DNA of 64,000 nucleotides, taken from contig CM069153.1 of assembly GCA_035221665.1 (NCBI GenBank), positions 30,070,001-30,134,000 of the forward strand, given 5' to 3'. The notes under the pieces were generated by a model. The model ran no database searches and had not been told where the DNA came from. It worked only from the letters and a program-made list of their open reading frames with translations. Origin of the DNA: Okamejei kenojei (taxonomy: Eukaryota). Shown in pieces: positions 19,001-61,000 of this stretch; position 1 is the stretch's first letter, and each line of letters begins with the position of its first letter. The position numbers and the translations under genes were made by a program.

Positions 19001-22000
19001 TATAAAACCATGTTGAACCTCGGCCTATTTCATCATGTACTTAGAAACCTCATCCCTTATAATGGACTTTAAAATCTTACAACCACTGAAGTCAGCGCAC
19101 CGGCCTATAGTTTCCACTCTTCTGCTCCCTTCTTGAACAGTGGAGTAAGATTTGCACTTTTCCAATTGTCTGGAACCACTCCTGACTCTAGTGATTCTTG
19201 AAGGATCAACACTAATGCCTCCACAATCTCTAAGGCCCTGGGGTGCAATCCAGCTGATAAGGTGACTTATCCACCTTCAGACCTTTCAGCTTCCCAAGCA
19301 TCTTCTCCTTTGAAATAGCCAATCCACTGACTTCCATCCATTGAATCTCTTGAATTTCAGGCATGTTGTTGGTGTCTTCCACTATCCACTGTGAAGACTG
19401 ATGCAAAAAACGTATTCAGTCCATCAGCCATTTCTTTATTTCCTACTATTACATCTCCAGCATCATTTTCCAGTGGTCCAATGTCCACTCTGGCCTCTTC
19501 CTTACTCTTTATATATCTGAAGAAACTTTTGCTCTCCTCTTGTATATTATGGCCTTACTTACTTTCATATTTCATAGTATATATCTGATCTGATTGGTGA
19601 GAATGCAAAGCACATGGTACATGTGACACTAATAAAACTAAACTTAAAAATGAAGCTCTCAATGACCACCAAGCGGGGCACCAGTAGAAAGCCCAGTGGA
19701 AGGTTCTCCGACTCAGTTTGGATGGAGAAGGGAGGGAGAGGTAGTGGGTGGGGCAAGGAGCTGCACTCGGAGACAAAGGTTTCATGTCATACTGCAATAC
19801 AAGTGTTTCAGAAGCACTTAAACAAGCTAGAAAACAAGTGATATTGGTTACTCCTGAGACGAGAGCCCTGGTCTGTTACATACCACCCAACGGAGCCAGA
19901 GACTTGTCTCACTTGCAGTGCGCAGGGTCACATTGGCAGGAGCCATGTCAGGCGGGGCCTGCAACGTTTGAATTTTGCGTGATAGCTGGCTCGGCAAGCT
20001 CGTCCCCACGATGTTGACCTGGCGCATGCGGAACCTGCAGAGACACAGAGCGGGCACTGCGATACAAGACAATCCACAATCCCCGAGTGGGCACTGAGCT
20101 ACTGGACATTCCATGCCACCCTCACGGGCACTGAATGACAGGACATTCCACATGTGAATGGTACCTGTAATGTGTGAGTGATACCCGTAATGAGGAGTGG
20201 TACCTGTAATGTGTGAGTGACACCTGTAATGGGCGAATAATATCTGTAATGGGTGAATGGTACCTGTATTGGGCGAATGGTACCTGTAATGCGTAAATGA
20301 TTGTAATGGGTGAACCGTACCTGTAATGGGTGAACCGTACCTGTAATGGGTGAATGGTACCTGTAATGGATGAATGGTACGTAATGAGTGAATGGTATCT
20401 GTAATGGGTGAAGTCCCTGTTAAGAGTGAACTGTACCTGTAATGAGTGAAATGTACAGTGGCTTGCAAAAGTATTCATACCCCTTGAACTTTTCCACGTT
20501 TTGTCGCGTTAAAACCACAAACGTAAATGTATTTTATTGGGATTTTATGTGATAGACCAACACAAAGTGGCGCATAATTGTGAAGTGGAAGGAAAATGAT
20601 ACATTGTTTTCAAATTTTTTTACAAATAAAAAACTGAAAAGTGTGGCGTGCTAAAGTATTCAGCCCGCTTTACTCTGATACCGCTAACTAAAATCCAGTG
20701 CAACCAATTGCCTTCAGAAGTCACCTAATTAGTAAATAGAGTCAACTTGTGTGTAATCTAATCTCAGTATAAATACAGCTGTTCTGTGAAGGCCTCAGAG
20801 GTTTGTTAGAGAACATTAGTGAACAAACAATGTTCCTTGGGCATCATGAAGCCCAAGGAACACACCAGACAGGTCAGGGATAAAGTTGTGGAGAAGTTTA
20901 AAGCAGGGATAGGTTATAAAAAAATATCCCAAGCTTTGAACATCTCACGGAGCACTGTTCAATCCATCATCCGAAAATGGAAAGAGTATGGCACAACTGC
21001 AAACCTACCAAGACATGGCCGTCCACCTAAACTGACAGGCCGGGCAAGGAGAGCATTGATCAGAGAAGCAGCCATGAGGCCCATGGTAACTCTGGGGAAG
21101 CTGCAGAGATCCACAGCTCAGGTGGGAGAATCTGTCCACAGGACAACTATTTGTCATGCACTCCACAAATCGGGCCTTTATGGAAGAGTGGCAAGAAGAA
21201 AGCCATTGTTGAAACAAAGCCATAAGAAGTCTTGTTTGCAGTTTGCCCCAGCCATGTGGGGGACACAGCAAACATGTGGAGGAAGGTGCTCTGGTCTGAT
21301 GAGACCAACATTGAAGTTTTTGACCTAAATGCAAAACGCTATGTGTGGCAGAAAACTAACACTGAACATCACCCTTAACACACCATCCCCACTGTGTAAC
21401 ATGGTGGTGGCAGCATCATGCTGTGGGGATGCTTTTCTTCAGCAGGGACAGGGAAACTGGTCAGAGTTCTTGGGAAGATGGATGGGGCCAAATACTGGGC
21501 AATCTTGAAAGAAAACCTGTTAGAGTCTGCAAAAGACTTGAGACTGGGGCAGAGGTTCACCTTCCAGCAGGACACCGACCCTAAACATTCAGCCAGAGCT
21601 GCAATGGAATGGTTTAGATCAAAGTATATTCATGTGTTAGAATGGCCCAGTCAAAGTCCAGACCTAAATCCAATTGAGAATCTCTGGCAAGACTTGAACA
21701 TTGCTGTTCACAGACGCTCTCCATCCAATCTGACTGAGCTTGAGCTATTTTGCAAAGAACAATGGACAAAAATGTCAGTCTCTAGATGTGCAAAGCTGGT
21801 AGAGACATACCCCAAAAGACTTGCAGCTGTAATTGCAGCGAAAGGTGGTTCTACTAAGTATTGACTCAGGGGGGCTGAATACTTTTGCACGCCACACTTT
21901 TCAGTTTTTTATTTGTAATAAAATTTGGAAACCATGTATCATTTTCCTTCCACTTCACAATTATGCACCACTTTGTGTTGGTATATCACATAAAATCCCA

Positions 22001-25000
22001 ATAAAATACATTTACGTTTGTGGTTGTAACGTGACAAAATTTGGAAAAGTTCAAGGGGTATGAATACTTTTGCAAGCCACTGTACCTATAATGAGTGAAT
22101 GATACCTGTAATGGGTGAATGGTACATGTCATGGATGAATGGTACCTGTAATGATGAATGGTACTTGTAATGAGTGAATGATACCTGTAATGGGTGAATG
22201 GTACCTGTAATGGATGAATGGTACCTGTAATGATGAATGGTACTTGTAATGAGTGAATGATACCTGTAATGGGTGAATGGTACCTGTAATGGATGAATGG
22301 TACCTGTAATGATAAATGGTACTTGTAATGAGCGAATAATACCTGTAATGGGTACCCGTAATGGATGAATGGTACCTGTAATGATGAATGGTACTTGTAA
22401 TGAGGGAATGGTACCTGTAATGGGCGAACAGTGCCTGTAATGAGTGAACTGTACCTGTAATGGGTGAAAGGGTTGAGGTTGGGGACCTCCAGGGAGCGTG
22501 CATCAGGCTCGTTGACCAGCTGATGAACCAGGTGCCATTCCTCATGCTCCCCAATTACACCGACCTGAGGAAGGAAAGCAGAGGTCAGCCCAGGGGCGCT
22601 GCGCAACCAGCCAGTATTCTGCTTGGCTTCATCCTCTGGAGGAAGCATGGAATGGCTGCAGTCCACGTTGGTATTAATTAAAAAAAACCTCAAAAGGATC
22701 AAGGAGATTGAAAATACTCTTAAAATATTATTACTCAGTTAATCACAGTCAAAGATAGACCCAAAATGCTGGAGTAACTCAGCGGGTCAGGCAGCATCTC
22801 TGGAGAGAAGGAATGGGTGACATTTCAGATGGGTATGATCCAAAACATCACCTGTTCCTTTCCTCCAGCGATGCTGCCTGACCCGCTGAGTTACTCCAGC
22901 ATTTTGGATCTATCTTCGGTATAAGACAGCTTCTGCAGTTCCTTCCTAAACATAATCACTTACAGCAATTCAATTTCTTCTAACGGAAAAATTAAACCAA
23001 TTATAATTAAACAATGGGCAGCAAGATTAAAACAGCTAAGATATTTTGTTCAGTTACATTGTACAATATTCTTTCCAGTTCTTTTCAGAATATTAGCCAA
23101 ATCAGAATCAATTAGTGAACTACATCAAACTCCGTGTTGCATTTGCTCAAGTGTTCACAATTGTCTTTGTTACAGTAATGGCTTCATTACTACTTGCATT
23201 TCAGAAACTTTTTCATAAAGAAAAATTGCGCTCTATGGTGGCAAAATTAGCATAATGCCAAAGCCAAGCCTTATACATTTATGATAATGAGGAGAGGTAG
23301 AGGGAAACAGTTTTGGAGACACAAGTAAGTGCAGACGCTGGAATTTTAAGTGCTGGGAGTAACACAGCAGGTCAGGCAGCATCTGTGGAGGGAATGTACA
23401 GGCAACGTTTCAGGTTGGGACTCTTCTTCAGACTTCAGTTGTTAAGAATGGATTTAAAGAGGGTGTTGGAGAGAGGATGAGGTTCGAGGAGGAGATTGAG
23501 AATCTGGGCAGCTGATGACAGTGTCACCATTGGTTACATTGGAAAAGAGACACGAGACAACGGACGTAAATGGAGAGACTCAGGGAGATGGTTGGATGTT
23601 GGGTGAGAGATGTTCAGTGCCAGCAGCAAGATTTTGAAAATGTTTGGCCCAGAAGTCACAAGTCATCATGAATTAAAGCATTGATGAGAGGGATGGTGTG
23701 AAATAGAATATGATGAAGAGTATTTGAAGAGCAGTATTAAAATGACATAGTAGTGCAGTGGTAGACCCGCTGCATCACAGTGCTAGAGACCCTGGTTCGA
23801 TCCTAACCTCAGGTGCTGTCTGTGTGGAGTTTGAACGTCCTCCCTGCGACCGCGTGGGTTTCCCCCGGGTGCTTTGGTTTTCCCCCACATCCCAAAGTTG
23901 TGGGGGTTTGTGGGTTAATTGGCCTCTGCAAATTGCCCATGATGTGTAGGGAGTGAATGAGAAAGATGAATGATGGTCAGCATGGACTCGATGGGCTGAA
24001 GGGCCCGTTTCCCAGCCGCTTCTCTACTACTAAAAAAATTAATGTAAAGTGAGAAAGACATGAAGATGTAATTCAGTTGGCCTAAGATGAAGGCTCCGGC
24101 AGTGGTTGTGATGGAGATTAAAGCAGACAGATGTGGCAAATAAGAAGAGACAATGTCTACCATTCAATCATAGATTCTCAACCACGTCGCTGAAGGAACA
24201 GCTCCTCATGTATCGCTTGGGCAGCTTACAACCCAGCAATATGAATATTGATTTCTCTAACCAAGTAACCCTTGCTTTTCATCTCTCTCCATCCCTCCCC
24301 GCCTTAGTTCTCTGACTAGTTACCCTGTCCTCCTGATTAAATATTACTGATTGTTTGCCGTGTTTTCACCTTCCCCTCAGCTAACAATGAACCATTCTAC
24401 GTTTCCTTTAGCATTATCTGCTTTAATCCGTCATTTTCACACCTTGCCCTTCCATATCTCTAGACTTCCCCTCCCCTGACTCTCAGTCTGAAGAAGGATC
24501 TCGACCCGAAATGTCACCGATTCCTTCTCTCCAGAGATGCTGCCCGTCCTGTTGAGTTACTCCAGCATTTTGTGTCTATCTTCGGTGTAAACCAACAGCT
24601 GCTGTTTCTTCCCACACAAGTCCCTGAAAACGATGGTTTCATTGGTTACCATCATAATTCTGAGTAAGAAGTCATCACTGCCACTTCCTTTACACACAGC
24701 AGGGTAAATGCAGACTTTTGATAAAAATGTAAAATGCAATGAATCGGTATCTTAAAATAAATATTAATTGGATTATTCCTGGGTTCCGTGACAAAGTGGT
24801 TACCGCCGTCCTTTGTCTCTCAAATCTACATGGAAAAAGCAAATTCAATTACCTACTGGAATTGAAAGCTGGCATTCACAGTTAAGGTAGCAAAGATCAC
24901 ATATATTTAGCTCCAGAATTACTTTTCAAGCTCAATTTACAGTCAATGTATCGCCTAGGCAATGGATTTTAATATTAGTTAAAAGCAACTGGTATCATTA

Positions 25001-28000
25001 TGTTTTAAAGAAGGAACTGTTTCCCTGATCCCTGACCAGTCTGAAGAAGGGTCGTCGCCTATCTCCTTCGCTCCTTAGATGCTGCTGCACCCGCTGAGTT
25101 TCTCCAGCCTTTTGTGTTCCCTGGTATCATTAAGTTGCGCCTTTCCCTCACCGATCAGTGTTTTACTTCACACACAATGCATCCAGAGTTGCACATTTTT
25201 TTGGTCCAAAAATATTTTATATTTTAAATATTTAATAGACATTTGAGCAGGTAAATGGATGGGAAAGGTTTGGAGGGATAGGGGGCAAATGGAGGCAGGG
25301 TAGGCTCGTGTGGATAAGTCATCAATGGAGCATCTATTCCTCTATTCTTTTACATTAGTTCCTTTCCTGTCAGTGAAACTGACCACAGTCTAGGTCTTTC
25401 GATTGGGGAATTCATTGAATACAAGGTAATGTACAACGTACGTACAAACACTGGCCCGTATACTCAACAACCCGTCTGGCCTGTACGCTCTGCAACGTAC
25501 AAACACTCTGCTCCGTACACTCTGCAACGTGCAAACTCTCTGGCTCCGCAGATGAGCCGGCGACTGCATGTACTTGGAATCACAATATTTCCAGATTTCT
25601 TCCAAGGTTTGAGGTGGAACTGGCTGGGAAATGTTGACATTTATCCCACGTCCTCTGGGCCATGGCACAAACACTGAGGTCTCTAATTTGATGGCATGAA
25701 TCTGCTGGGGGTTCTCTCACTGTGATCTGAGGTTGGACAAACCTGCTGACGTCCTCAACACTTAACACTGGGGAATCACCTTCCTGAGGCAGAGTCAGGT
25801 TGGAGCAAGCCCAGAAGATTACTGTCTTCAGTTAATTAACTCTATCGCTAAAGCATTTTTTACAGCTTTTAAACTAACTGTATTTGCTTTGATGATTTTC
25901 ATTATTTTACAAAGTATTTTATAGATGTTCCGAAATGGTTGAATTGCTTATTTTTTGATTTAAACAAAAAAATGTCAATTGTGTTTGAATGGTTTTCAAA
26001 TGTTCTCAATTGAATTGATTGATACAACATGGAAACAGGCCCTTCGGCCCACCCTGTCCACGCTGACCACGGATCAATGTTCACACTAGTTCTGTGTTAT
26101 CCCACTGTCTTGTTAACTCCAAACAATTTACAGGGGCCAATTAACTTACAAACCTGCACTTCTTTGGAATGTGGGAGGAAACCAGGGCACCCAGAGTAAA
26201 ACCACGTGGTCACAGGAAGAACGTGCAAACTCCACACTGACAGCACCTGAGGTCAGGATCGAAGCCGGGTCTTCAAAGTTGTTAGGCAGCAGCCCCACCG
26301 GTTTTCAGAAACATTTGAAGTCCTCGACAACCCACAAAGCCAGAGGAGTGAATTTTCAGATGTGAAAGGTTTCCAGCCATGTTCTGACCAGCTTTAGTCA
26401 GGTTCGCCCAGGCGATAACAATGGCCGATGCCACCCACGGCCCTGCTCTGTTGCCAGACTTTAACTGATCAGCAAGTCACTGCTGAGAGATGTAGTGTTT
26501 GCCCGTACAGCGCCAGAGACCCGGGTTCAATCCTGACTATGGGTGCTGTTTGTACAGAGTTTGTATGTTCTCCCTGTGAAAATGTGGGTTCCTCCGGTTT
26601 CTTCCCACATTCCAAAGACACACAGCTTTGTAGTTTAATTGGCTTCGGTAAAAATGGTAAAATGTCCCTAGTGTGTAGGATAGTGTCCAAAGTGCATATA
26701 TACTTGGTGGGCCGAAGGGCTGGTTTCTGCACTGTAGCTCTAAAGTCTAAAGTGTAAAGATCCCTGACGTGTATGTATGAAGCTTCCCCGTGTTATTTGG
26801 GAGCGTTCTGCTGATTGAAGTCAAAGACAAAATACAGGTGCATGGAAAAAAATTAACAACTACTCTTGTCTCAAACTGAGAGACAGGGACCTTTCAAAGT
26901 CAAGGGAACAAATTAAGGTGCAGTGAAATTCGAATTCCCATGCAGCCACACTGATGAATAAAGCAGATTGTATTTTTTCCATACTCTATTGAATGACGAA
27001 CCTTGCTCATCATTCACCCCTTAACTGTAAGTGCCTGTGTGTACTGTACCTGAGACTAATTACCTGTCCCACTTGCCGATTTTTTCGGCGGCTGCCAGTG
27101 TCATTGACTGACGTATCAGGGTCGCCGAAAAATTTTGAACATTTCAAAATCTAGCGGCGACAAAATAAATGTTGCGACACCTGAGGAAACACCGAGCGTC
27201 AATACGTCGTCATGCTGTGTCACGCTGCATCACGGCGCGACTTTTATGGTGACCTGATGCCGGCAGTCGCCAAAAAAAACGCCAAGTGGGACAGGCCCTT
27301 AAGTGTCTGTGTGTTTAATCTACCCGAGACTGTAAGTGTCTATGTGTGTACTGTACCCAAGCGTGTAAGTGTATGTGTGTTTACTCTACCTGAGCCTCCA
27401 CCAACCAGCGCGAGATGGACGTTTTTCCATCATAGCCAGGCCGAAACTGCAGCGTTACCGAGCGAGGGCCGATGTTCGAGATGGCCAGGTTTGTGGGGGA
27501 GCCAGGTAACTCTGTTGGAACACGCACAGATGACTTGGAAAGGTATTCAATACATTAACAGGGGCTTTAGAAAATGAATCATACACAGACAGCCATGCTG
27601 TTGCATTATGGAGATGTACGTAGATGCAACAGCATTGCACGCTGCCCTCATTGACATTAAACCGGACCAAGGCACCAACGTTTGTAAATAATTTATTTAA
27701 ATTATTTTGGTTAAAAAAAAGGCACCAACATTTCCTCAAGTTGCGAAGTTCCGTTAATCAGATAGCGATCAGAAATTGTTAAAGAATTCTCAAAGTTCTC
27801 ATCTTCTTTCGTTTGTTGATAGAGCATTAAATGAATTATGGGAGCTAACGCATCGTCAGAATGGCAGGCCTGGGGTAGAGGCGGAGAATATTTAATTCAA
27901 TTGCTTGACAAACTGCAAATACAAAGAAGGGCAAAACACCATTTGCTAACTGTATGGACAAATGCACCAAAGTTCTTCATTATTTATTGCAATCCCATTG

Positions 28001-31000: not shown

Positions 31001-34000
31001 GGTAAGAACTGGGCACGAATAGAAGGGGTGGGAAACTGCTGTTAGGTGACAGATCCTATTGATGTGTATTCTCCTGCTTTGCCTGTGAAATTTAACATCC
31101 ATTTGCCTTTACTTCTCCAGGTTTAACTTTGTATTTGCTGATTAAGAATAGAAAGTTCGGAATTTGTGGAATTCTCTACCTCAGAAGGCAGTGGAGGCCG
31201 ATTCACTGGATGCAGTCAAGAGAGAGTTAGATAGAGCTCTTAGGGCTAGCGGAATCTAGGGGTATGGGGAGAAAGCAGGAACGAGGTACTGATTGTGGAT
31301 GATCAGCCATGATCACATTGAATGGACGGTGCTGGCTCGTAGGGCCGAATGGCATACTCCTGCACCTAATGTCTATGTATCTATGATTGTATGCTCTGGA
31401 TTGGCATTAGCCTAGAATTCATTCAATGGACTCTGAATGGATTGTAAAATGTAAGCTATTTAATTTGCGATTATTCGGCCACAATGTGTTAAGCTTGTTA
31501 TTTAGTTTCAGGGCCACTTCTTCTAATGTTCTTGCCTTCAATGCAATTTAGCCAATTGGTGTTGCACTCCAGAGCAAAGATCCTATTGGAGCAAGATAGA
31601 CCACTCTTGCTAAATGCAATGGGCTGACGTGTAGTACGCAACGGAATGGAACGTGAGCCTTTTTTACATCCATTTCCGTAATCGGACCCGACCCGACCCG
31701 ACCCGACTCGCAGTGTAATCAATGTTGCGGGGGAACAGTTTGTGTTAATAAATTAAAATTCTGAAAATGAGGCGAAGATTTTTACCAAATAACTTTTATT
31801 TTTACGAGGATGTTTCCGTAACCGGCTTCCGTCTCCGCACTATTATCCTATGGGATATTTGGTGCGGAGACGGAAGCCGGTTACGGAAATGGGGTCTTAA
31901 ATTACCCACGAATCTGCCCATGACCGTACTACGGCTTTTTCATCGAGTGGACTATCTTGCTCGCTATAGGATCTTTGCTTTAGAGTGGCAAAATGAATGG
32001 CACAAATTAGGAAAAGTAGTGATTGGATTTCAGCTCTGTAACCTGCTTCTTATTTACTCTTGAATTTTGCCATGGACCACAAAGCTTTAACGTAAACAGT
32101 AGTAAACACTGCATGTCAAGTTCAATGTAGATGGGTCAGTGCACAGATGCAAGGGAGTTCATCTGATCATTCACTTTTTCAAATAAGCCAAAGACACATA
32201 AAGTGAAATATTTCACATCCAAAGCATTACGGACTGCTGTTTATTACACTGTTCAGTTTAGTTTAGAGATACAACGTAGAACCAGGCCCTTCCGCTCACC
32301 GAGTTCATGCCGACCAGCGATCCCCACACATTATCTGCTGAACTTATTCCTATCAATTGATTCCATTATTGCGATGGAACTGAGATAAATCTAATGGGTT
32401 TAGCAATAGCTCAGTATGTTTTGCAATATTTTTGGACATTGATATTATATTTACGAAAAACTGTTATTTCTCCTGTTCTCAATGTCTGTCATAGTGATAA
32501 TCAGTTTCACACATCTCCCCACTAATCTCAACACGCTGAGATAAATGCCATTTAACCGGGGATTTATTTGCTTTAAACTCTTTCAACATAACGCTGTGCC
32601 CTCCGGTTAATTGCCTGAGTGGAACTTTTCCACATGCGGTTGTGTACGGGTTACTTTGAAGTCAGAGGAAACAATTTCCAGCCAGCGTCGAGAGGATGTG
32701 AGTGACGACACCTTTGAACCTGATCCGGTCAACGTTTTACGGATTGATTTCCCGTAGGTGATCTTTTGTAGTGATCAGACGCAGGAAACCTGATTATTAC
32801 AGCTGCATCAGATAAAGCAAAAGCATGCAAAAAACAGACGCCATCTGCATCTGGCATCTGCATCGAGTGCAGATTCAATTCTTCATTCCAGAGACTGTTA
32901 ATTTCACTTGCACAACATCAACAGGCATGGACCAGAAGACCACATGAGCCTCTGAACACAAAATGTAAACGCATCTTCCAAATCATCGATGTCAAAACCA
33001 AGGAGGTTAGAACCTCTGTTCCTCCGTTACAAAGCCATCCATTTTTTATGCAGCCAACTACCAAAGTTGTCACCTAATGTACATTTATAACATGTCAAAT
33101 ATGGTAATAAAGTTTCATTCATTCATTCAATCATTCATTCATTCATTCATTCATTCATTCATATATTGAAGGACCCCGTGATACGGGCAAGATACTTACA
33201 ATCTTCATGAGAGCGCACAAGTTGGGGCGGACTCCTGGGGCCGTCCCCTGGGGTGGTGAAGCATAGCACAGAGGTGTAATATTCGGCAAACTTCTTCAAG
33301 CCACGTATGTAACCAACATGGACCATGTCCTGGAAGTTTGGCCGCACGGTCACCATGGTAAAGTCTTCAATCTGACCAGGCTCCCAGGCCAGCAGCTGAA
33401 ATGATAAAACAATTATCAAAGGGAACATCATGGGAAAGCACATGTTTAGTTTAGTTCATTATGGTCACGTGTACGATGATACAGTGAAAAGCTTTTTTGT
33501 TGCCTGCTATCCATTCAGCCGAAAGACTATACATGATTACAATCGAGCTGTCCACAGTGTGAATATAAAGGATAAAGGGAATTAGGTTCAGTGTAAGATT
33601 AAGTCCTGTAATGTCTGATTAAAGATAGTCTGAGGTCCCCAATGAGGTAGATGGCAGCTCAGGACCGTTCTCTAGTTGTTGATAGAAAGGTTCCGTTTCC
33701 TGATAACTGCTGGGAAGACACAGTCCCTGAATCTGGAGCTCCACAAAATGCTGGAGTAACTCAGCGGTACAGGCAGTATCCCAGGAGAACATGGATAGGT
33801 GACGATTCAGATCGCGACCCTTCTTCATCCTGATTGTGTGGGGGTAGCGGGAGGAGAGGGGAAAGGTGGAAGGGAGGAGGAACAGCACAAATTCTGGTTG
33901 GTAATAGGTGAACATAGGTGAGGGGTGGGGGGGGGGGGGGGGGGCTTGACAGGCAGATGGTTGGAGGAAGGCCAGGAGGAGGATGAAAAAACAGAAGGTG

Positions 34001-37000: not shown

Positions 37001-40000
37001 ACAGGGATTGTTCAACGTACCATATAAAGAGGCAGGCCCATGCGGGTGCCCATAGCTACACCTTGGACTTGGAGGAAGTGGAGGAGTCAAAGGAAAAGTT
37101 GTTGTGGAAAGATTAGAATGTTAGTAGGTGGAGTAGAGTGTTAGGAGCTCTTATAGTGCTCTGGTCTGTTTAATTTAGTTAAATTTAGTGTAGAGATACA
37201 GTGCAGAAACAGGCCCTTCAGCCCCCAGCGTTCACACCGAACAACGATCCCCGCACACTAACATTATCCTACACACATTAGGGACAATTTCTAATTATAT
37301 CAAGCCAATTAACCTACAAAGCCGTCTGTCTTTGGAGTGTGGGCGGAAACCGGAGATCCCGGACAAAACCCACACAGGTCACGGGGAGAACATACAAACT
37401 GTACAGACAAGCACCCATAGTCTGGATCGAATCCTGGGTTTCAGGTGCTATGAGGCTGTTTAATATTTACAGAATCTAATGTTATCTCGAATATTTTTTG
37501 TCTATTTGCACCTTCATAGATTGTGGTCGTGAACCACTTCCTTGAGCATCTCTACACAATCCCTTTGTGTCTTTCCATCAAGAAAAACACATAGGGCTGG
37601 AGTGGCTCAGCAGGTCAGGCAGTGTCCCTGGATGATATGGATAGGTGATGTTTTGGGTTGGGACTCAAGAAGGTCCCAACCTTCAACTTCAATTCATGTT
37701 CTCCAGAGATGTTGCCTGGCCTGCTGAGTTACTCCAGCACTTTTTTTTCTCTTTGTAAACTAACATCTTCAGTTCCTTGTATTTCTTCCATCAATGATGT
37801 ATTCTCATGAGACTTGGTTTTACTCACAAAATATATGAACGCATTTAGACTTCACATTTTTATATATTTGCGTTTTAAATTTTAATAGGTCACTTCCATT
37901 ATTTTTAAATAGCATGCAACGTGCCTTCGAAGGCTGACCTTGAGGAACCACTGTTTTTAAAACATTACTAATTTTATCTCAAAGCATGGAGTTGAAGAAT
38001 ATTTTTGCTGCTGACATTGAACTATTTAGATAACTTACAAAGTTTATTCTCTCTGTTCTTGAACAAGGTTACTGAGGGGCTACTCATGGTTACTTTAACA
38101 TATTTAAGGTAGATTGAAAGAATGGAGCCTTCTCTGCGACCTCACTGCCCATTCCAAAACAGCCTGTTGACTTATCTGTCTTTATTGTTCAATACATTTA
38201 TAAATATTTCCAGAGTCTTAGCGAGGATTTAAGTTAAAAAAAAAACATCCTCCATTTGCCACTTAATCCTTCAAGGAAATGTATTGAGTTTAGACAGTGG
38301 ATCTGAGGTTGAATCTCTGCATCACAGCAAGACAAACTATATTCAGGTCCTGCTGGAGTAAAGATATGGCAGACAAAGTTTGCCGTTGCTACACCTCTGA
38401 TGGCAGGGGACTGTAGCCCAACACACTATCACAGCTGTTTCCCTTGCAAATGTGGACAAAAGATAAAAGTTCATACACAGAAGACTGATAATATATTATT
38501 GGTTAATGTTCCATTTAGCGTTCACAGAAGCTAGAGGTTGGGCAATATGTGGATTGTGGCCGCATGTTTATTTTTTGTTCAACTAAAAAGCTGCCTGTTT
38601 GCCTGACTTTTGTTTGGAAACTGCAAAATGTTCTCATTGAGGTTTGTATTGCTCCAGTGCTGTATCCCAGCACGATAAAATCACTTTAAGCTGGACAGCA
38701 ATATCACTTCACAAAAGAGGTTGAGTGCATTCAAACCAATGCAGGACAGGGGTTAGAACATTACAAACCAATGACTAAACTATTGTCTGAGCAGTCACTG
38801 TCACTGCGGCTAATGTTTAAGTCTCATTGTGTTCCAGGCAAGGAGCCAGAGTGGAGACAGGAAGGATCAACAACCGAGCAGTACATGAATGCTTCTTTAG
38901 ATTTTGCTCCCACTAGTGTTTAAGAAGGAACTGCAGGTGCTGCAAAATCGAAGGTAGACAAAAATGCCGGAGAAACTCAGCGGGTGCAGCAGCATCTATG
39001 GAGCGAAGGAAATAGGCAACGTTTCGGGCCGAAACATTGCCTATTTCCTTTGCTCCATAGATGCTGCTGCACCTGCTGAGTTTCTCCAGCATTTTGTGTA
39101 CCTTGCTCCCACTAGTGTTACTCGATGGATCACGAAGCACTGTCCCTTGGGGGCAGGATGTCTACACTGGTTTCTATAATTGGGTGTGACTGCCAGAATA
39201 TCTCCACAAGTGCAGGACTCCCATATCGTTTGCAGAAAGAGAGAGAATTCTACACTTACCTCACGCTTTGTGTGAAGAAGTGTACCTTTTCCCGTGAATG
39301 ACCTGGGTCTGTTTTTTTCAGGTTACTTGCTCTGAATTAGGTAAGCATTTGATGAAAGGTGATGAGATTTAATTGGGTTTATTGCAGAGATCTCCCTCAT
39401 TTTCTGCTCTCAAGCTGTTAAATCAAATGTTGGGTATGGAATGGCCTTCCAGTTTACCCACATGCCAGTGACAACACTGGCAGCATCCCCAATAACGTTG
39501 ACACAGTCGCATTATAATCAAGGCGCTGATGTCATTACTGGATCGAGTCAATCAACAGTCTCTTTAAACACTTTTCACTGACTGGTTAGCACGCAAAAAA
39601 AATCTTTTCACTGTACCTTGGTACACGTGACAATAAACTACACTAAACTAAATGTTCACAAATGCAATTGGACAAAAATCCAAATCTTGACACCACCACT
39701 CAAAATAATGTGGTAGAGTTATCTGTAGCTCTTTCTCATCCAACAAGAAATGCTTGACATTAATCCCTACAAGCTTACAATCCTATGAGTTTACATTTAG
39801 CAAAACTTCAACAATTCTATGAGCTTACACTTAGCAAAACCTCAACATCATTGTTCACAGTAGATTTGTACTCGAAGCTGTGAGTATTACCTTGTAGCCT
39901 TGGTTAATCCCATTAATAAATTGCGGGCTGGGTGGGGTCCACATGAATCGAATGGTTGTGGAATTAATAGCCGCAGCGCGCACGTTTCCTGGAGGCACTG

Positions 40001-43000: not shown

Positions 43001-46000
43001 CAACGTATCTACCTCCTCCACCACTCCTGACAGCGCATTCCAGGCACTCACCAACCTCTGTGTAAAAACTTGCCCTGCACATCTTTAAACTTTGCCCCTC
43101 AACTTAAAGCTATGCCCTCTAGTCTTTGACATTTCCACCCTGGGGAAAATGTTCAGACTGCCTACCCTATCTATGCCTCTCATACTTTTATACATGATGA
43201 TGGTACAATAGTAAGGTGATCAATTGTGATGTGCAGAGAATCTTTGCGATTGCCTTGGATGTCAGAGATCATATCAATATAACCAAGGCTTTATTTGTAG
43301 ATAAGAAGCAACCGGTATGCAGACTCTTCCATGTCGTAGAGTCACAGAATCATACAGAATGGAAACAGCCCTTCAGCCCAACTTGTTCCTGTTGACCAAC
43401 AATCCCATCTGCACTAGTTCCACCTGCCTGTGTTTGACAGGTGTGACTGGTGTCCCCTTACTGTTGGTGTCTCTGTCTAATATTCCCAGCTGTTGGTGTC
43501 TCTATCTAAGACTCCTAGCTATTGGTGTCTATGGCAGGTCATCATCCTATAAGATGCTTAACCTGTTGAAGAACCTGACTACCTAATTTATGCAATACAT
43601 TTTACTTTTAAAATCTTACTAATCTTTTTGTAATATTTAAAAAATCTAAAACGTGAAAATCAAATGTTCTAACTGATTAGAGATGCAGGTATGACGTAGC
43701 ATCACAATTAATATCGACATTTACAGTATGATGAATATGTAAGTTATAGATTGAGAGTGAATGAATATGTAAGTTATAGATTGTGAGTACAGCACTGGGC
43801 ACAGGCCTTACCTCTCTGTCTCTCTGCTGTACTGCCCCCTGCCAACATCGTTCAAGGCACAGATACGGAACTGGTAGGACCGGGCTGGAATGAGTCCTCT
43901 GACAGTCAGACCCACAGATTCCGGGTTGATGCTCATCAGGTGAACCGTCCAAGGGGAATCTTCAGCAAAAAAGATACGTTTCTTCTGAAAATGGTTATTT
44001 CACTTCAAGGCAACAACAAGATTAACATTCAAATGCTCGTAAACTCTGATACAATTGGGCAAATGAGAAGGAGCAATGATTGGGCAGAGCAAAAAAAAAA
44101 GGAGTCATAACTTTGCTGAGTGACTAAATTAAAAAAATAAAATAAAAATCCAGCATCTGCAGTTCCTTCTTTAACACAACTTCTAGTTTTATTCTTCTTT
44201 TAACACCGAAGACAGGGAAGTTACTTCACTGGTACCTTCAGCATTATCACGGCCTCAGACGCCAGTGAGTGGGCAGCAGTGGGAGTAACTGTTGACAAAA
44301 ATGATGAGAGACACGGTGGAAAGTATGAGGTTAGAGGACACACTGGTTGAAAGAAAAGGGGTTCTCAAACATTGCTGTCTATGAGGAACCGGGGAGCAGT
44401 GTTTGTCCGTCAGTACATACTACACGATCACTTGCAACACATTTACCTTCTACTTCCCAAAGCATAGGCATTATTGCATTTAAAAGATAGACACAAACTG
44501 CAGGAGTAACTCAGCGGGACAGGCGGCATCTCGGGAGAGAACGAAGGGAGGATGCTTCGGGTCAAGAGACCCTTCTTCAGGCCAGAAACATCACCCATTC
44601 CTTCTCTCCAGAGATGCTGCCTGTACCGCTGAGTTACTCTAGCATTTTGTGTCTATCTTCGGTTTAAGCTAGCATCCGCAGTTACTTCCTAACAATATAC
44701 AAGTTTCAATTTAGTTTATTAGTTTTAGTTTAGTTTAATATTGTCACTTGTACCAAGGTGCAGTGAAATGTTATTTGTTGTATGCTAATCAGTCAGTGAA
44801 AGACTATACCTGATTACAATCAAGCTGTCCACAGTGTACAGATGCAGGATAAAGGGTAAAGTCAACTCTCGAGTCTGATGAATGAGCACTGAGATTACAT
44901 TTCCAACAACAATGTGTATTGGTCTCTTTTATTTGCTACTTGGAAAAGTAATTAGTCACATCTCGATTCCTGGCTGGCCACGGGAAGCAGGAGGCAATAC
45001 TGTTCTGGTCAGGAGATCCCGGAGGTGAAAACTACACCACCTCCGGAGGGGAAACTGCAGCAGAGGTGACAATCAGAGCAAAAAAATGGTGATATCCGTA
45101 ACTTCAGTTGGAGCAGGGTTGGTTGATGCTGCATCTCTAATGTAAACTAAACTGATCCGTTGCCTAATCTAGTGCAAGGTTGCATGGCTGCCCAAGACAG
45201 TCACATTTACTTCACCATTGCTTTTGCTCTCCTGCTCGCTCACTCCCAATCTTTGGGATTTTCTTTCGTCTGATTCACCAAAGCCATTTTGTGGAACCTT
45301 TTGGCCATTCTAATCATCTACTTGAATTCATTCTTCACCTCTTTATATTCTTCAAAAGCCCTGTCTGATTCCACCCTCCAATACTCTGCATGCATTCCCT
45401 TTTTTCTTTTTGACCAAATTTACGACCTCTTTGGTCATCCATGGCCTACCGTACTTTGCCATCCTTATTCCTCCTCAGTGAAACATGCCAGTTCACAACG
45501 TGACCAACTGGTTGTGAAACATCCCAACAAGTCAGATGTAGACTCATCCAATAACTTCTGCTCCCAGTTTACCTTCTGATGATCCTGCCTAATCACCTGT
45601 AGTTTGCCTTACTCCAATTTAGTACTTTGCCGTAAGCTTCATCTTTCATTCTATTCACAATCTTAAAACCTATGGATACAAGGAACTACAGATGTGATTT
45701 ACTAAGAAAGACACAAGTGCTGGAGTAACTCAGTGAACATACTGAGACCGCTGCGTTACTCCAGCACTTTGTGCCTTTACAACGTATGGTGTTCACTAGT
45801 GACAAACAGCTCTTAGCAGCGGGCTGGGATGCTCCCGCCAGCAGGCCCACAGGGTGCCCGCCCTTACGGGGAAGCCGGCGCAGAGCTAGGTGGTCAGTCG
45901 AAGCCCCGAGGTTGAGTCAGGCCGAGGACGAGGTTGAGTCGGAGCCTTGAGATCGGGCCATGGACAAGGTTGGGTCGGGACGAGGAGGGAGCCACGGGGT

Positions 46001-55000: not shown

Positions 55001-58000
55001 AATGGGGAATGTCAGAGAGTAATGGTGGATGGCTGTTTGTCAGGTTGGAAGCCCACCGGTGGGGGGCCTCAGGGATCTGTGTTGGGTCCACTGTTGTTTG
55101 TCATGTACATCAATGATCTGGATGATGGGGTGGAAAATTGGATAAGTAAGTATGCAGATGATACTAAGATAGGTGGTTATGTGGATAATGAAGTCTACAG
55201 AGAGATTTGGGCCATTTGGAAAAGTGGGCTGAAAGATGGCAGATGGAGTTTAATGCTGATAAGTGTGAAGTGCTACATCTTGGCAGGACAAATCAAAATA
55301 GGACGTACATGGTAAATGGTAGGGAATTGAGGAATGCTGTGGAACAGAGAGATCTAGGAATAACTGTGCATAGTTCCCTGAAGGTGGAATCGCATGTAGA
55401 TGGGGTGGTAAAGAAAGCCTTTGGTGTGCTGGCCTTTATAAATCAGAGCATTGAATATAGGAGTAGGGAAGTAATGTTAAAATTGTACAAGGCATTGGTA
55501 AGACCAATTCTGGAGTATGGTGTACAATTTTGGTCACCTAATTATAGGAAGGATGTCAACAAAATAGAGAGAGTACAGAAGAGATTTATTAGAATGGTGC
55601 CTGGGTTCCAGCAACTATGTAACAGAGAAAGGTTGAACAAGTTATGTCTTTATTCTTTGGAGCGCAGTAGGTTAAGGGGGGACTTGATTGAGGTCTTTAA
55701 AATGATGAAAGGGATAGACAGAGTTGACGTGGATAAGCTTTTCCCATTGAGGGTAGGGAAGATTCAAACAAGAGGGCATGACATGAGAATTAAGGGACAG
55801 AAGTTTAGGGGTAATGTGAGGGGGAACTTCTTTACTCAGAGGGTGGTGGCAGTGTGGAATGAGATTCCAGCAGAAGTGATGGAGGCAGGATCGATTTTAA
55901 CATTTAAAAGTAAAATGAATAGGTATATGGACGGGAAAGGAATGGAGGGGTATGGTCTGAGTGCAGGTAGATGGGACTAGGGGAAAACAAATGGTCGGCA
56001 TGGACTGGAAGGGCCGAGAGGGCCTGTTTCCGAGCTGTAATTGTTATATGGTTATATGGTTATATGCCTTACTTCAGAACTGGCTTGTTCTCACACAAAA
56101 CTAGACGGACCAACGATGTGAATGTTTGGAATCCTGTGTTACGTCCCAACGCTGGAACATCCCCAGTCAGAAGGGGATGAGCATTGCTGGAGACATTGGG
56201 GTGAACCATGGAGTCGTGGATGGAGGAATAGCTTCTGGGGGAGAGGGGAAGATTTGTCTGGATGGGATCACAATGACGGTGGCGGTAATTCTGCTAAAAA
56301 TAAGTTGTCTTGTCATACTTCTCATATTAACTGTTCCACATAGCATAAATTATAGAACACCATGGCTTCTGCATTTAATTCCAATGTCTCTGCCTTCCTC
56401 ATGGAAAACACTCCAGTTCCTGCTTTTTTGTTCCAAGAATGAGTTCCCCAGATTTGGTACTAGATCTTGCCTTTCACCAGTTTCAACCCCCGTTCCTGGT
56501 CTTGCCAACTCAGTATACTTTGTAGCATTCTTTATTCTTTCTACACCTTTTATGAAGTCCTCCCTGCATTTCTCACAGTCAGACTGAATAATTTGACTTG
56601 CCAAGCCTTCCCTTAGAATTCACGGGATGGCAAGGCGGCGCAGCAGGTAGTGCTGCTGCCTCATAGTGTTGGAGACCCAGGCTCAATCCGGACCTTGGGT
56701 GCTATCAGTGTGGAGTTTGCATGTTTGCCCTGTGGCAGCGTGGGTTTCCACCAGGTTCTCCGATTTCCTCCCACATCCTAAAGACGTGTGGGCTTGTTGG
56801 TTAATTGGCTTCTGTAAATTGCCCCTAGTGTTTAGGGAGTGGATGAGTAAGAGGGATAACTTAGAACTAGTGTGAACGGGTGATCGATAGTCGGTGTCGA
56901 CTCGGTGGGCCGAAGGACCTGTTTCCCTGCTCATACTCTATCTCTAAACTAAACTAAATTCCAATATGAAGAACGGGTTTTGCCTGCCTTTTCAAATACC
57001 CCTTCTGGTTTTGGATCTGCATCTTATTTTTGGCCAAAAGCCGACCGGTTTTGTTCCTCTACAGGTATAATGTCTTTCAAAGTCATTTCCTGGCCTGAGA
57101 GACGCCAGGTTATTCAATAACACTGTATGCCAAACTGCAGGCTTTAAGCTAAACGTTGGCACTGCCGTGCAGCTGAATCTGTTTAGCAATGACAAGAAGC
57201 CAAGTGGAAAAAGTTCAATTAAAAATGCTAAGTGAAACCCACAATGAATTAAAGGCCCCCAGAGTTCATTATTAGCATGAATATTTATTGTTTAGATAGG
57301 CTCGCAAGGCAATGCTAACTACATCTACTTTGCATACACAGAATAGACTGCCTATAAAACAGACTATCCTTGCTCGAGTCCCGTTGGTGGTCTCGACGGT
57401 AAAGCAACACGAGATTGCTTTGTTGAAAATAATCTCTTCTCAGTCTCCATAGTGTTCAGTTCACAGCTGCTACTCTGGTACTAATGGACGAGAAATGGTG
57501 AGAGAAGAGCCTGATGTTTGGAGATGGGTTCAACAGTTACTTTGATCTGGTTTTGAGCTTCCTTTAGTTTCGACTGTAATGTGGAGCATTGTGGATTCAG
57601 ACCCGCAGGCAGAGACTTCACTTACCCCACACCATGTGACCTTGCCCCGCACACTGGGACCTTACCCCACACATGTCCTTACCCCACACGTTACCTTAAC
57701 CCCGCACACTGGGACATTACCCCACACACTGGGACCTTACCCCACACGATGAGATCTCCGGACGCCTCGTCCACTCCGCGGGAATTGGTGGCCAGGCAGA
57801 TGTAGCTGCCGGCATCGGAGATGTGGGATGGGCTGATGAGGAGGCTGCCGGACTCCAGCAGGGTGAAGCGGGGGAACTGGACGGAACCGCTCGCCAGCAC
57901 TTTCTCTCCTGTGTGCAAAAGGGAACACATGTCGCTCATGATATTTATCAGTGACGTTTCACTTTAGAACAGTCCAGCACAGGAATGGCCCCTTCGGCCC

Positions 58001-61000
58001 ACAATGTTTGTGCCAAACATGATGCCTGGTTAAACTGATCTCATCTGACTGTATGTGATCTATAGCCCTCCATTCCCTGCACTTCCAGGAGCTCATCCAA
58101 AAATCTCTTAAATGCCACTATCATATCTGCCTCCACCATCACCACAGGCAATGCATTCCACACCCCCACTAATCTCTGTGGAATAAATCTTGCCCTGCAC
58201 CTGGTGCTTCACACATGCACCACAGAAAACTTACTGTTTCTGTTCCATACATCACAGCTTGGTTTGGGAACAGCTCTGCCCAAGACAGTAAGAAGTTGAG
58301 GATGTAGCCCAATTCATCATACAGACCAAACTCCTCACCACTGACTCTACTTACACTTCACACTACCTCGGGAAAGCAGCCAACATAATCAAAGTCATGT
58401 CCCACCCCGGTCATTCCACCTTCTCCCTGCTCCCGTCAGTAAAAGCGACAGAAGCTTGAAAGAATGCACCATAGACGCAGGGACAGTTTCTTCCCCTCTG
58501 TTATCGGGCTTCTGAATGGTCTTACCATAAGCTTGGGTACTGTCTGATTCACTTCTACCCAATTGAGGACATTGGATATAGACACAAAAAGCTGGAGTAA
58601 CTCAGCGGGTCAGACAGCATATCTAGAGAAAAGGAATAGGTGATGTTTTGGGTCAAGACCCTTCTTCAGACAGGGAGTCAGGGGATGTTGGACTTTGCCC
58701 ATGGAACTGGTGCACTATAATGCTGAGAACTATATTCTGTGCTCTCTATCTTTCCCTTTGCTCTACTTATTGCACCTGAATTTGACTTGATTGTGATTAT
58801 ATGTTGTATTATCTCATCTGTTTCTGTTGCATGTAAAACAAAGCTTTACACTGTATCTCAGCGTATGTGACAATCATAACGCTAACCCAGAATAAAAACA
58901 AACCAGTTATTTTAGCCCAGTGCTTTCACCACAGATCTAGTCAGAACCATGTCATTATTACTGGCACTGTTTGTTGGACAGGGCAACAGACGTAGAAATA
59001 AAAAACTAATCTTCTAGTTTATACCTGAAACAAAGTGCTGGAGTAACCCAGTGGGTCAGGCAGCAACTCTGGAGAAAAAGGATGGGTGACGTTACGGGTC
59101 GGGACCCTTCTTCAGACTCATGTCTTCAGTGGATGAGTGGACATATGTCCTTCTTGTGCCACTCGCTTCACTTGACAGGGTCAGACCCAACTAGTCAGCC
59201 TGCTAGTGATTGAAGCTGGAGCTGGCCACAGCGCATCACTTGAAGAGCTTCTGATTTTGTCACTTCTGTAGAATCTCCCTCAGACCAAAAATGTCACCAT
59301 CTTTTAAAGAGAGATTAAGAGCTTGGGGCTGTTGGAACCGGCCCATGGGAGACCCTCTCTGAGAGAGGGCTTCTGGCTGCTTTTGACTTCAGGTGTTACT
59401 GTCCTTGTGCTTGGAAAAGGCCACACACAGAGGACGCTTAGCAACAGTGGGCATGCCTGTTCCAAACAAGTCAGACCCTCCTAAACTGAATTCATCATCC
59501 GTCACTATGAGGTCAATGATCAGTGAATACAGACAGTAGACGTCGGCAGCCTGGTAAAGTTTGTAAAGGAAAGGCAGGGTGATGGGAGATGTGGGAGTAG
59601 GTGTAGATACTTGCCCCTCTGCCAGGTGATGGCGGGTCGTGGAGCCCCCGACGTTTCACACGAGAGGATGACTGAGAGCCCGTCTATCACCGTGCTGTCG
59701 GTTGGCCCCTTGGTGATATTGGGAGGAATACCTGCAACAACCAAAAACAACCATTTCTCTCACATTACTTCAGATATCACTGAGTAATTTACGTCATGAG
59801 AGCACTAATTTTAATCATGGCACGTTTATCAAGTGCATTCTATATGATAACTAAAGGAACAATAAAATTGGAGATATTAGATCTTTTCACAAGACAGTGG
59901 ATCGGATTTCTATAAACATACTACTGTTTTAATGTGAAGATCAATAAACTGCAGATGCTGAAAATCAGAAAGATCACCTTTGTTTCTCTTGCCGTTTACT
60001 GACTCGTTCTTGCCATGACTAAATCAGCCATTGAACTCTCTGTAAGGCCACACAACAGCAAATACTGATTCGGCGATGAGTGAATGGGGAACAAACGTCG
60101 ACGGAAATACTGGAACGGCTCTGACCTTTACCAAATAAAGCAGTTGGGCTATTTACATGCGCATATACTTGCCCTTAAGTTAAAGGGTTTACCCTGAACA
60201 AACAATTCCGTGCATCCCTTCAGAACCCTTGCAGCACGGTGTTGCAGCAGTAGAGATGCTGCCTCACAGCGCCAGAGTCCCAGGTACGATCCTGACTAGA
60301 GGCGCTGTCTGTGTGGAGTTTGTATGTTCTCCCTGTGACAGCATGGGTTTTCTCTGGGTGCTGCGGTTTCCTCCCACATCCCAAAGACATGTGGGTTTGG
60401 AGGTTAATTGGCTTCTGTAAATTGTGCCTTGTGCTTATGATGGAACTAGAGCACGGGGCGATTGCTAGTCAGCGCAGACTCGGTGGGCCGAAGGGCCTGT
60501 TTCCGTGCGGTATCTCTAAACCAAAGAAGTTTCCAAATCAGTAATTCCCTTATTCTATTTTATGATGTTAGTTATTCCTGAATTGATAGCAAGTCATTTG
60601 CCCCAAAAAGCTCCTAGAAAAGTTAAAGATAAAATGCGATTAAAAGATTACATTGGAATTAGAGTAGTATTGGATTAGATTAGAAGGCACGATTGAAACA
60701 TTTATCCACAATTCACAATCCTCTTGCACAATGGACCATCGCGGTGTGCGTGCCGGGAGTTAGCTGAATGAAAGATGCTACTTACTGGTGACGGCCAGGT
60801 AGGTGAATGTTTGCACCTCGCCCGCATCGTTCCGGGCAAAGCACTGGAACATGCCAGTGTCGTCAGGGACGAGCCCGTTGATCTGGAGGCTGCCGTTGGA
60901 CAACACCTTGTATCTGGGGGCAGTTAGCCTGGTGATGAGCGTCGCGTCTTTATACCAATACAGCACTGGCGGGGGCACTCCTGTAAATACATACACAACA

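Follow-up and report, generated by a model that had tools for sequence, protein, structure and literature searches.

An SDK2 intron in Okamejei kenojei built largely from tandem copies of its own donor junction, with the first donor probably the one in use

The DNA analysed here is a 64,000-nucleotide window of the Okamejei kenojei genome (assembly GCA_035221665.1, contig CM069153.1, positions 30,070,001 to 30,134,000; coordinates below count from the first letter of this window). Its minus strand carries exons of SDK2, and one SDK2 intron consists, apart from a Tc1-type transposon, mostly of tandem copies of the junction at which it begins. The coding exon upstream of this intron (VGVIGEH...NPFTHY-R, 22455..22564, minus strand) ends in CCTTTCACCCATTACAG, followed by the GTACAG of the intron, and its last 14-17 nt are the seed of the repeat. 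The intron extends from 22454 to 20035 on the minus strand (2,420 nt, phase 2), and the next SDK2 exon (FRMRQVN...WLRWV, 19884..20034, minus strand) starts from 20034. The best named matches of this downstream exon are SDK2 proteins with 88-96% identity, and the stretch 3' of the junction matches 1WIS, the structure of an SDK2 FN3 domain. Spliced alignments of homologs, run on a reduced sequence, supported the intron at 22454-20035 in 4/4 cases. Moreover, 73 of 81 long homologs bearing the F.M.QVN motif are collinear over the junction without an insertion, while the remaining 8 differ just 5' of the motif.

The first repeat unit is the authentic donor junction itself, TTCACCCATTACAG and then GTACAG (22449..22468, minus strand, donor at 22454). 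The array starts 14 nt inside the exon, with this first unit straddling the real exon-intron boundary. Tandem Repeats Finder (TRF) reported 20-bp arrays at 22082-22468 (19.9 copies, 80%) and 20154-20450 (15.2 copies, 78%); the units are arranged head to tail, and the 20-bp period falls within the 10-100 bp of a junction-spanning minisatellite. On the minus strand, the left part (22083..22454) holds 19 more junction copies, 12 of them with AG|GT and all weaker than the authentic donor, and the right part (20153..20453) holds 15 copies, 9 with AG|GT, ending in a terminal partial unit TTCAC, so that the array starts and finishes with TTCAC. Counting the real junction, there are 35 units, with AG|GT in 22, CAG|GT in 21 and GT in 30; the donor motif is accordingly reiterated in the intron, AG|GT being kept in 21 of 34 copies. 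A 19-nt unit motif allowing ≤3 mismatches found 24 matches in the window, all within 20162-22470, against 0.05 expected from 100 shuffles. Within the left part, a 79-bp higher-order repeat of four units (22083..22342, minus strand; 3.3 copies, 2-5 differences between copies) is the youngest layer of array expansion.

Without the transposon and one TA, the intron measures 791 nt, of which the array makes up 673 nt. A preliminary description of this DNA had given an intron of about 790 bp with about 670 bp of array, in about 35 units that mostly carry CAG|GT, and these figures stand. It had overlooked a second, decayed tandem repeat at the intron end (20035..20150, minus strand; 3 x 37 bp, 20-21/26 nt alike between copies), which at about 116 nt accounts for most of the other 118 nt and whose last copy extends into the pyrimidine tract and the authentic acceptor. 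With this 37-bp repeat included, nearly the whole of the Tc1-free intron is tandem repeat, suggesting that the ancestral intron may have been near minimal size.

The transposon (20456..22082, plus strand, antisense to SDK2; 1,627 bp) lies at a TA inside the 20-bp array and splits it, with the TA duplicated at 22083-22084 and 20454-20455. Its assignment to the Tc1 type is based on inverted ends of about 212 bp (201/212 identical), the TA duplication and a helix-turn-helix plus DDE transposase. The transposase is broken into pieces (open reading frames 20810-21328 and 21400-21864), and PF01498, PF25787 and PF13358 scored above cut-off over these two separate frames. Since the ends differ at 11/212 sites and the transposase is fragmented, the insertion is not recent.

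Identity of the copies to the 20-nt junction averages 78%, and a consensus drawn from all 34 departs from this junction only at +5/+6 (CA vs AG), confirming the earlier proposal that the unit matches the exon end at PFTHYR and is an amplified junction. An exact 31-nt two-unit pattern had 5 matches in the 2.76-Gb genome, 5/5 of them in this SDK2 intron; the array therefore arose locally from the junction. An imported or dispersed satellite as the source of the unit is ruled out, all genome matches being confined to one intron.

Contigs from 4/4 DNA runs, representing four organisms, reached over the exon end and over the first and last units of the array; organism A's run may come from the window's own species or source. 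In the contig of one organism, one 20-bp unit more is present, likewise with GC, and the nearest copy is changed from G to A at +1; no contig crosses the whole array. Related organisms share the array, with an apparent difference in unit count. In 2/4 organisms, hardly any contig depth was seen over the 79-bp higher-order repeat, which was not used as evidence. The Tc1 family is represented very abundantly in these genomes, with a contig depth tens of thousands of times that of the flanks. In six RNA runs, 7-17% of words matched, probably representing transposon sequence. Two amphibian-metagenome RNA runs shared 14% of the words of the stretch, perhaps by way of a similar Tc1, and were likewise not used as evidence. 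Literature searches, which did not cover supplements, found no paper on the SDK2 array.

The AG|GT geometry of the units had been compared with the tandem-duplication model of intron gain, in which an exonic segment with AG|GT is duplicated in tandem and so creates an intron (Rogers model). The two have the AG|GT juxtaposition in common, the Tc1-free intron is almost all tandem repeat and its unit is mostly exon-derived. As set out in PMC3265369, however, the model requires that the intron be missing from paralogs and be bounded by duplicated AG|GT. In SDK1 of the same genome, a 6,999-bp intron interrupts the same codon in phase 2 (IPYTYY-R|FRIKQIN; 4/4 alignments). In addition, the end of the SDK2 intron (GTGTCTCTGCAG) is unlike the upstream exon end, its start is unlike the downstream exon start, and the acceptor in use lies outside the array and is not a copy of the unit. 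Intron gain by tandem duplication is refuted by the SDK1 intron at the same position and by intron ends that do not mirror the exons, and we regard such a birth of this intron as practically excluded. The intron is older than the SDK1/SDK2 split.

The same geometry had also been likened to recursive (ratchet) splicing, by which the intron would be removed stepwise, each AG|GT serving as an acceptor and then as a regenerated donor. The copies share the AG|GT juxtaposition with the recursive sites described in PMC10156609, and 21 AG|GT copies are available. Every unit contains a YTNAY-like word (TTCAC, CTCAT; consensus as given in PMC3265369), and 11/21 AG|GT copies scored at least as high as the real acceptor in a simple acceptor matrix built from 270 acceptors, mostly of AT-rich myosin introns. 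Furthermore, recursive lariats are reported over a range of intron sizes in PMC10156609. The copies nevertheless lack a pyrimidine tract. We applied the minimal recursive motif Y5+N0-4YAGGT, taken from PMC10156609, and found it in 0/21 copies, whereas its acceptor half is present in the real acceptor and in 73/189 real long-intron acceptors. The longest pyrimidine run is 3 in 22/25 AG-ending copies, and another AG lies 3-22 nt upstream in 15/21 copies, compared with 20/189 real acceptors. The first copies are 20-60 nt from the donor, at or below the roughly 60-nt minimal intron given in PMC3265369, and conventional lariats predominate in introns <1 kb according to PMC10156609. Nor is the AG|GT core preferentially kept: among 14 distinct unit variants, a small sample, 7 substitution types fall on the 4 core positions and 7 on the 8 others. 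The geometry itself follows from the exon ending in AG; 67-70% of the donors mapped here have the corresponding base at each of the two positions. Since these counts are low and come from copies that are not independent, the results lower the recursive claim, and rare stochastic events may still occur. The earlier view that the copies resemble both donor and acceptor holds for the donor side, with 21 AG|GT potential donors, and is mostly unsupported on the acceptor side. Recursive splicing at the array copies appears unlikely from their sequence, and stepwise removal of the intron through them is very improbable.

Donor strength was scored with a matrix of 280 GT donors of this genome, taken from SDK2 and seven myosin genes (170 distinct 9-mers). 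The authentic donor scored 6.7 bits, at the 35th percentile of the matrix donors. Among the AG|GT copies, 18/21 are weaker (3.5-5.9 bits), 1 is equal and 2 are stronger; all 12 intact copies upstream of Tc1, within 369 nt, scored 5.3-5.9 bits (11th-19th percentile), and in the nearest copy (22434) GC replaces GT. The earlier statement that the true donor is not clearly stronger than the copies is therefore borne out by the three equal or stronger copies beyond Tc1, and contradicted by the other 18 and by the GC of the nearest one. Use of an intact pre-Tc1 copy would shift the frame in 8/12 cases and add 57-123 residues inside the FN3 domain in 4/12. Intact copies number 2/5 among the first five and 19/29 among the others, too few to call selection against nearby copies. 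One folding prediction for the exon end and 120 further nt gave no structure that distinguishes the first donor; it had no shuffle control and was not used.

By sequence criteria, the SDK2 array belongs with the junction-spanning minisatellites (F7, CBS, 6-16, LMNB2, PDGF, ABCA7 and the mirages), a kind already known. The closest comparison is the 37-bp variable-number tandem repeat (VNTR) in intron 7 of human F7, where, as reported in PMC1557585, the most upstream donor alone is used, even when the competing copies have been strengthened to a consensus value of 91. As in F7, the first SDK2 unit lies across the boundary of exon and intron, and copies of the donor recur along the intron. Unlike F7, whose units are identical, the SDK2 array comprises 35 units of 20 bp, each with 14-17 exonic nt and about 78% identity, and is split by Tc1; site use in SDK2 is deduced. 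The minisatellites of 6-16 intron 2, CBS intron 13, LMNB2 and PDGF intron 4 have 10-26 reiterated donors, and in LMNB2 and PDGF the first donor alone is used, both as summarised in PMC1557585. The amphioxus mirages (Adh3, BflGb6, BflGb9) are boundary tandem repeats of variable length that leave splicing undisturbed, according to PMC3087553. They resemble the SDK2 array in that an exon-intron boundary is repeated, with AG/GT in many but not all copies. Mirages occur at both boundary types, whereas among the 352 introns sampled here the arrays that passed the filter were all donor-side (3 vs 0). Mirages have also been proposed as raw material for intron gain (PMC3087553), an idea from which the SDK2 array departs in having produced no new exon or intron.

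The locus is best read as a minisatellite whose first 20-bp unit lies across the exon-intron boundary of an old SDK2 intron; probably, the first donor is the one used and the copies are silent passengers. Several points weigh against this reading. Two distal copies, CAG|GTACGG at 20340 and 20320, score above the authentic donor (8.9 bits, 71st percentile) and a third, at 20436, scores equal to it, all three lying beyond Tc1. The donor matrix, which is not MaxEntScan, is position-independent and draws mostly on paralogous myosin genes. Splicing of 6-16 and CBS additionally employs two copies further downstream, as cited in PMC1557585; the SDK2 array differs from these in its nearest copy, which is GC, and in the weaker copies that follow. 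In the 25-bp VNTR of ABCA7 intron 18, some transcripts keep one unit and exon skipping varies with array length, according to PMC5954066. Like the SDK2 array, ABCA7 has a donor in each unit, and its length is variable, as that of SDK2 may be; its unit starts at GT, whereas that of SDK2 starts inside the exon, and its splicing effects were measured, whereas SDK2 is known from sequence. Use of the first donor at the SDK2 junction, although likely, is what we infer. Finally, neutral turnover alone does not explain three such arrays in one gene, the other two of which are described below. Taken together, the upstream-only use in F7 and the use of further copies in 6-16 and CBS lead us to expect first-donor use with a possible small leak; a low-level, frameshifting leak to copy 3 or 5 is possible.

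Tandem duplication between short direct repeats is a general mechanism, and we propose that the array was seeded by a duplication of the slippage or microhomology type, with two TTCAC words 20 bp apart as its endpoints; the TTCAC at both ends of the array fits this. Such a duplication would have been tolerated because, placed across the donor, it keeps the exon and the first donor intact and makes all the extra sequence intronic. The array would then have grown by ordinary repeat turnover. The first donor would win through upstream-first selection as in human F7, and the weaker +5/+6 positions in nearby copies may assist it.

Alternatively, the array could act as a splicing rheostat, with downstream copies used in some transcripts or array length shifting exon skipping, so that SDK2 output would be lowered via nonsense-mediated decay or a longer isoform made. 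There are 21 AG|GT copies, three at least as strong as the authentic donor; the left array is nearly free of stops in all three frames, with four intact copies in frame; unit number appears to vary between organisms; and the ABCA7, CBS and 6-16 repeats provide human precedents. The stop-free frames, however, result from unit composition. The nearby copies are weak, the nearest copy is dead in both forms seen, and in-frame use of a copy would break the FN3 domain. We consider it unlikely, and prefer the first donor with passenger copies.

SDK2 contains two further, independent donor-spanning arrays on the minus strand. At donor 57740 (array 57621..57751), a 20-bp unit with TGTGGG|GTAAG is present in 7 junctions; two of its copies equal the real donor (8.2 bits), the last is stronger (9.3 bits, GGG|GTAAGT), and the copy at +75 is in frame. 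At donor 27389, one exon upstream of the intron described above (array 27300..27395), a 33-bp unit forms 3 junctions; its two copies score low, at 2.7 and 4.9 bits, and are in frame. The three unrelated arrays (20-, 33- and 20-bp units) each start in the final codons of an exon, all within 35 kb, and none is at an acceptor. Donor-spanning arrays are thereby found at 3/40 SDK2 donors and 0/40 acceptors, with 0.16 expected from array density. These post hoc comparisons gave P = 0.011 for two arrays beyond the given one and a Fisher P = 0.04 against 152 long introns elsewhere. Three other short tandem repeats (43731-43788, 39777-39847 and 33114-33162) each begin 23-43 nt downstream from an SDK2 donor that they do not include. 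Two SDK2 introns on the minus strand have GC donors, at 59614 (GGG|GCAAGT; 4/4 spliced alignments) and 3274 (AAG|GCAAGC; 3/4).

Ten other genes (seven sarcomeric myosin genes, SDK1 and two MYO1 genes) had such arrays at 0/312 donors and 0/312 acceptors; this set includes 152 introns ≥500 nt, and four doubtful MYO1D junctions were removed before the count. A skate MYO1D protein aligned to the gene of this genome with a score of 4320, compared with 4076 for a horn shark and 3629 for a turtle protein, which suggests a skate or ray. With a looser filter, one 2.1-copy acceptor-spanning repeat appeared in a myosin intron. A word-copy test gave no excess, with 4/286 donors, 2/286 acceptors and 104/3,371 intron-interior controls (3.1%). 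A genome-wide search for a triple AGGTAAG pattern returned 171 matches, compared with 717 for the reversed control, mostly from a few satellites. A genome-wide excess of donor-spanning arrays is unsupported by the 312-donor set, the word-copy test and this pattern search.

We examined 24 distinct triple-AGGTAAG loci among 100 of the 171 matches, two large satellites apart. None of 17 upstream open frames at these loci had a Pfam match above cut-off, a weak test which suggests that most arrays of this kind lie elsewhere than at the ends of coding exons. Four of the 24 (on C3, C5, C9 and C12) are preceded by a common repeat-family leader, TTTTACT..GT-GAGTGA..CGTGAAGA, and the duplicated unit around the donor-like site differs in each; they appear to have arisen as separate duplications at the donor of a single mobile element. 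Multi-kb satellites of perfect donor-like words were observed at C1:19.38 Mb (AGGTAAGTCAGT) and C2:15.88 Mb (AGGTAAGGTTAGCTTAGCGT).

The SDK2 region could be a hot spot of repeated donor-junction amplification, driven by mutation or selection linked to donors, and the length of an array might tune splicing as in ABCA7. We think this quite unlikely; the cluster is a post hoc observation and may be due to chance. A donor-side bias is tolerable under upstream-first selection, and 3 vs 0 does not establish one.

The SDK2 array represents neither a new splicing mechanism nor the birth of an intron. It would carry greater weight if the clustering of three arrays held genome-wide, or if array length altered the dose of this synaptic adhesion protein. 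It is a natural case of many donors in a row, of which the first likely wins, and, because two stronger donors lie downstream and have been moved 1.6 kb further by a transposon, it provides a useful test bed for upstream-first donor selection outside mammals.

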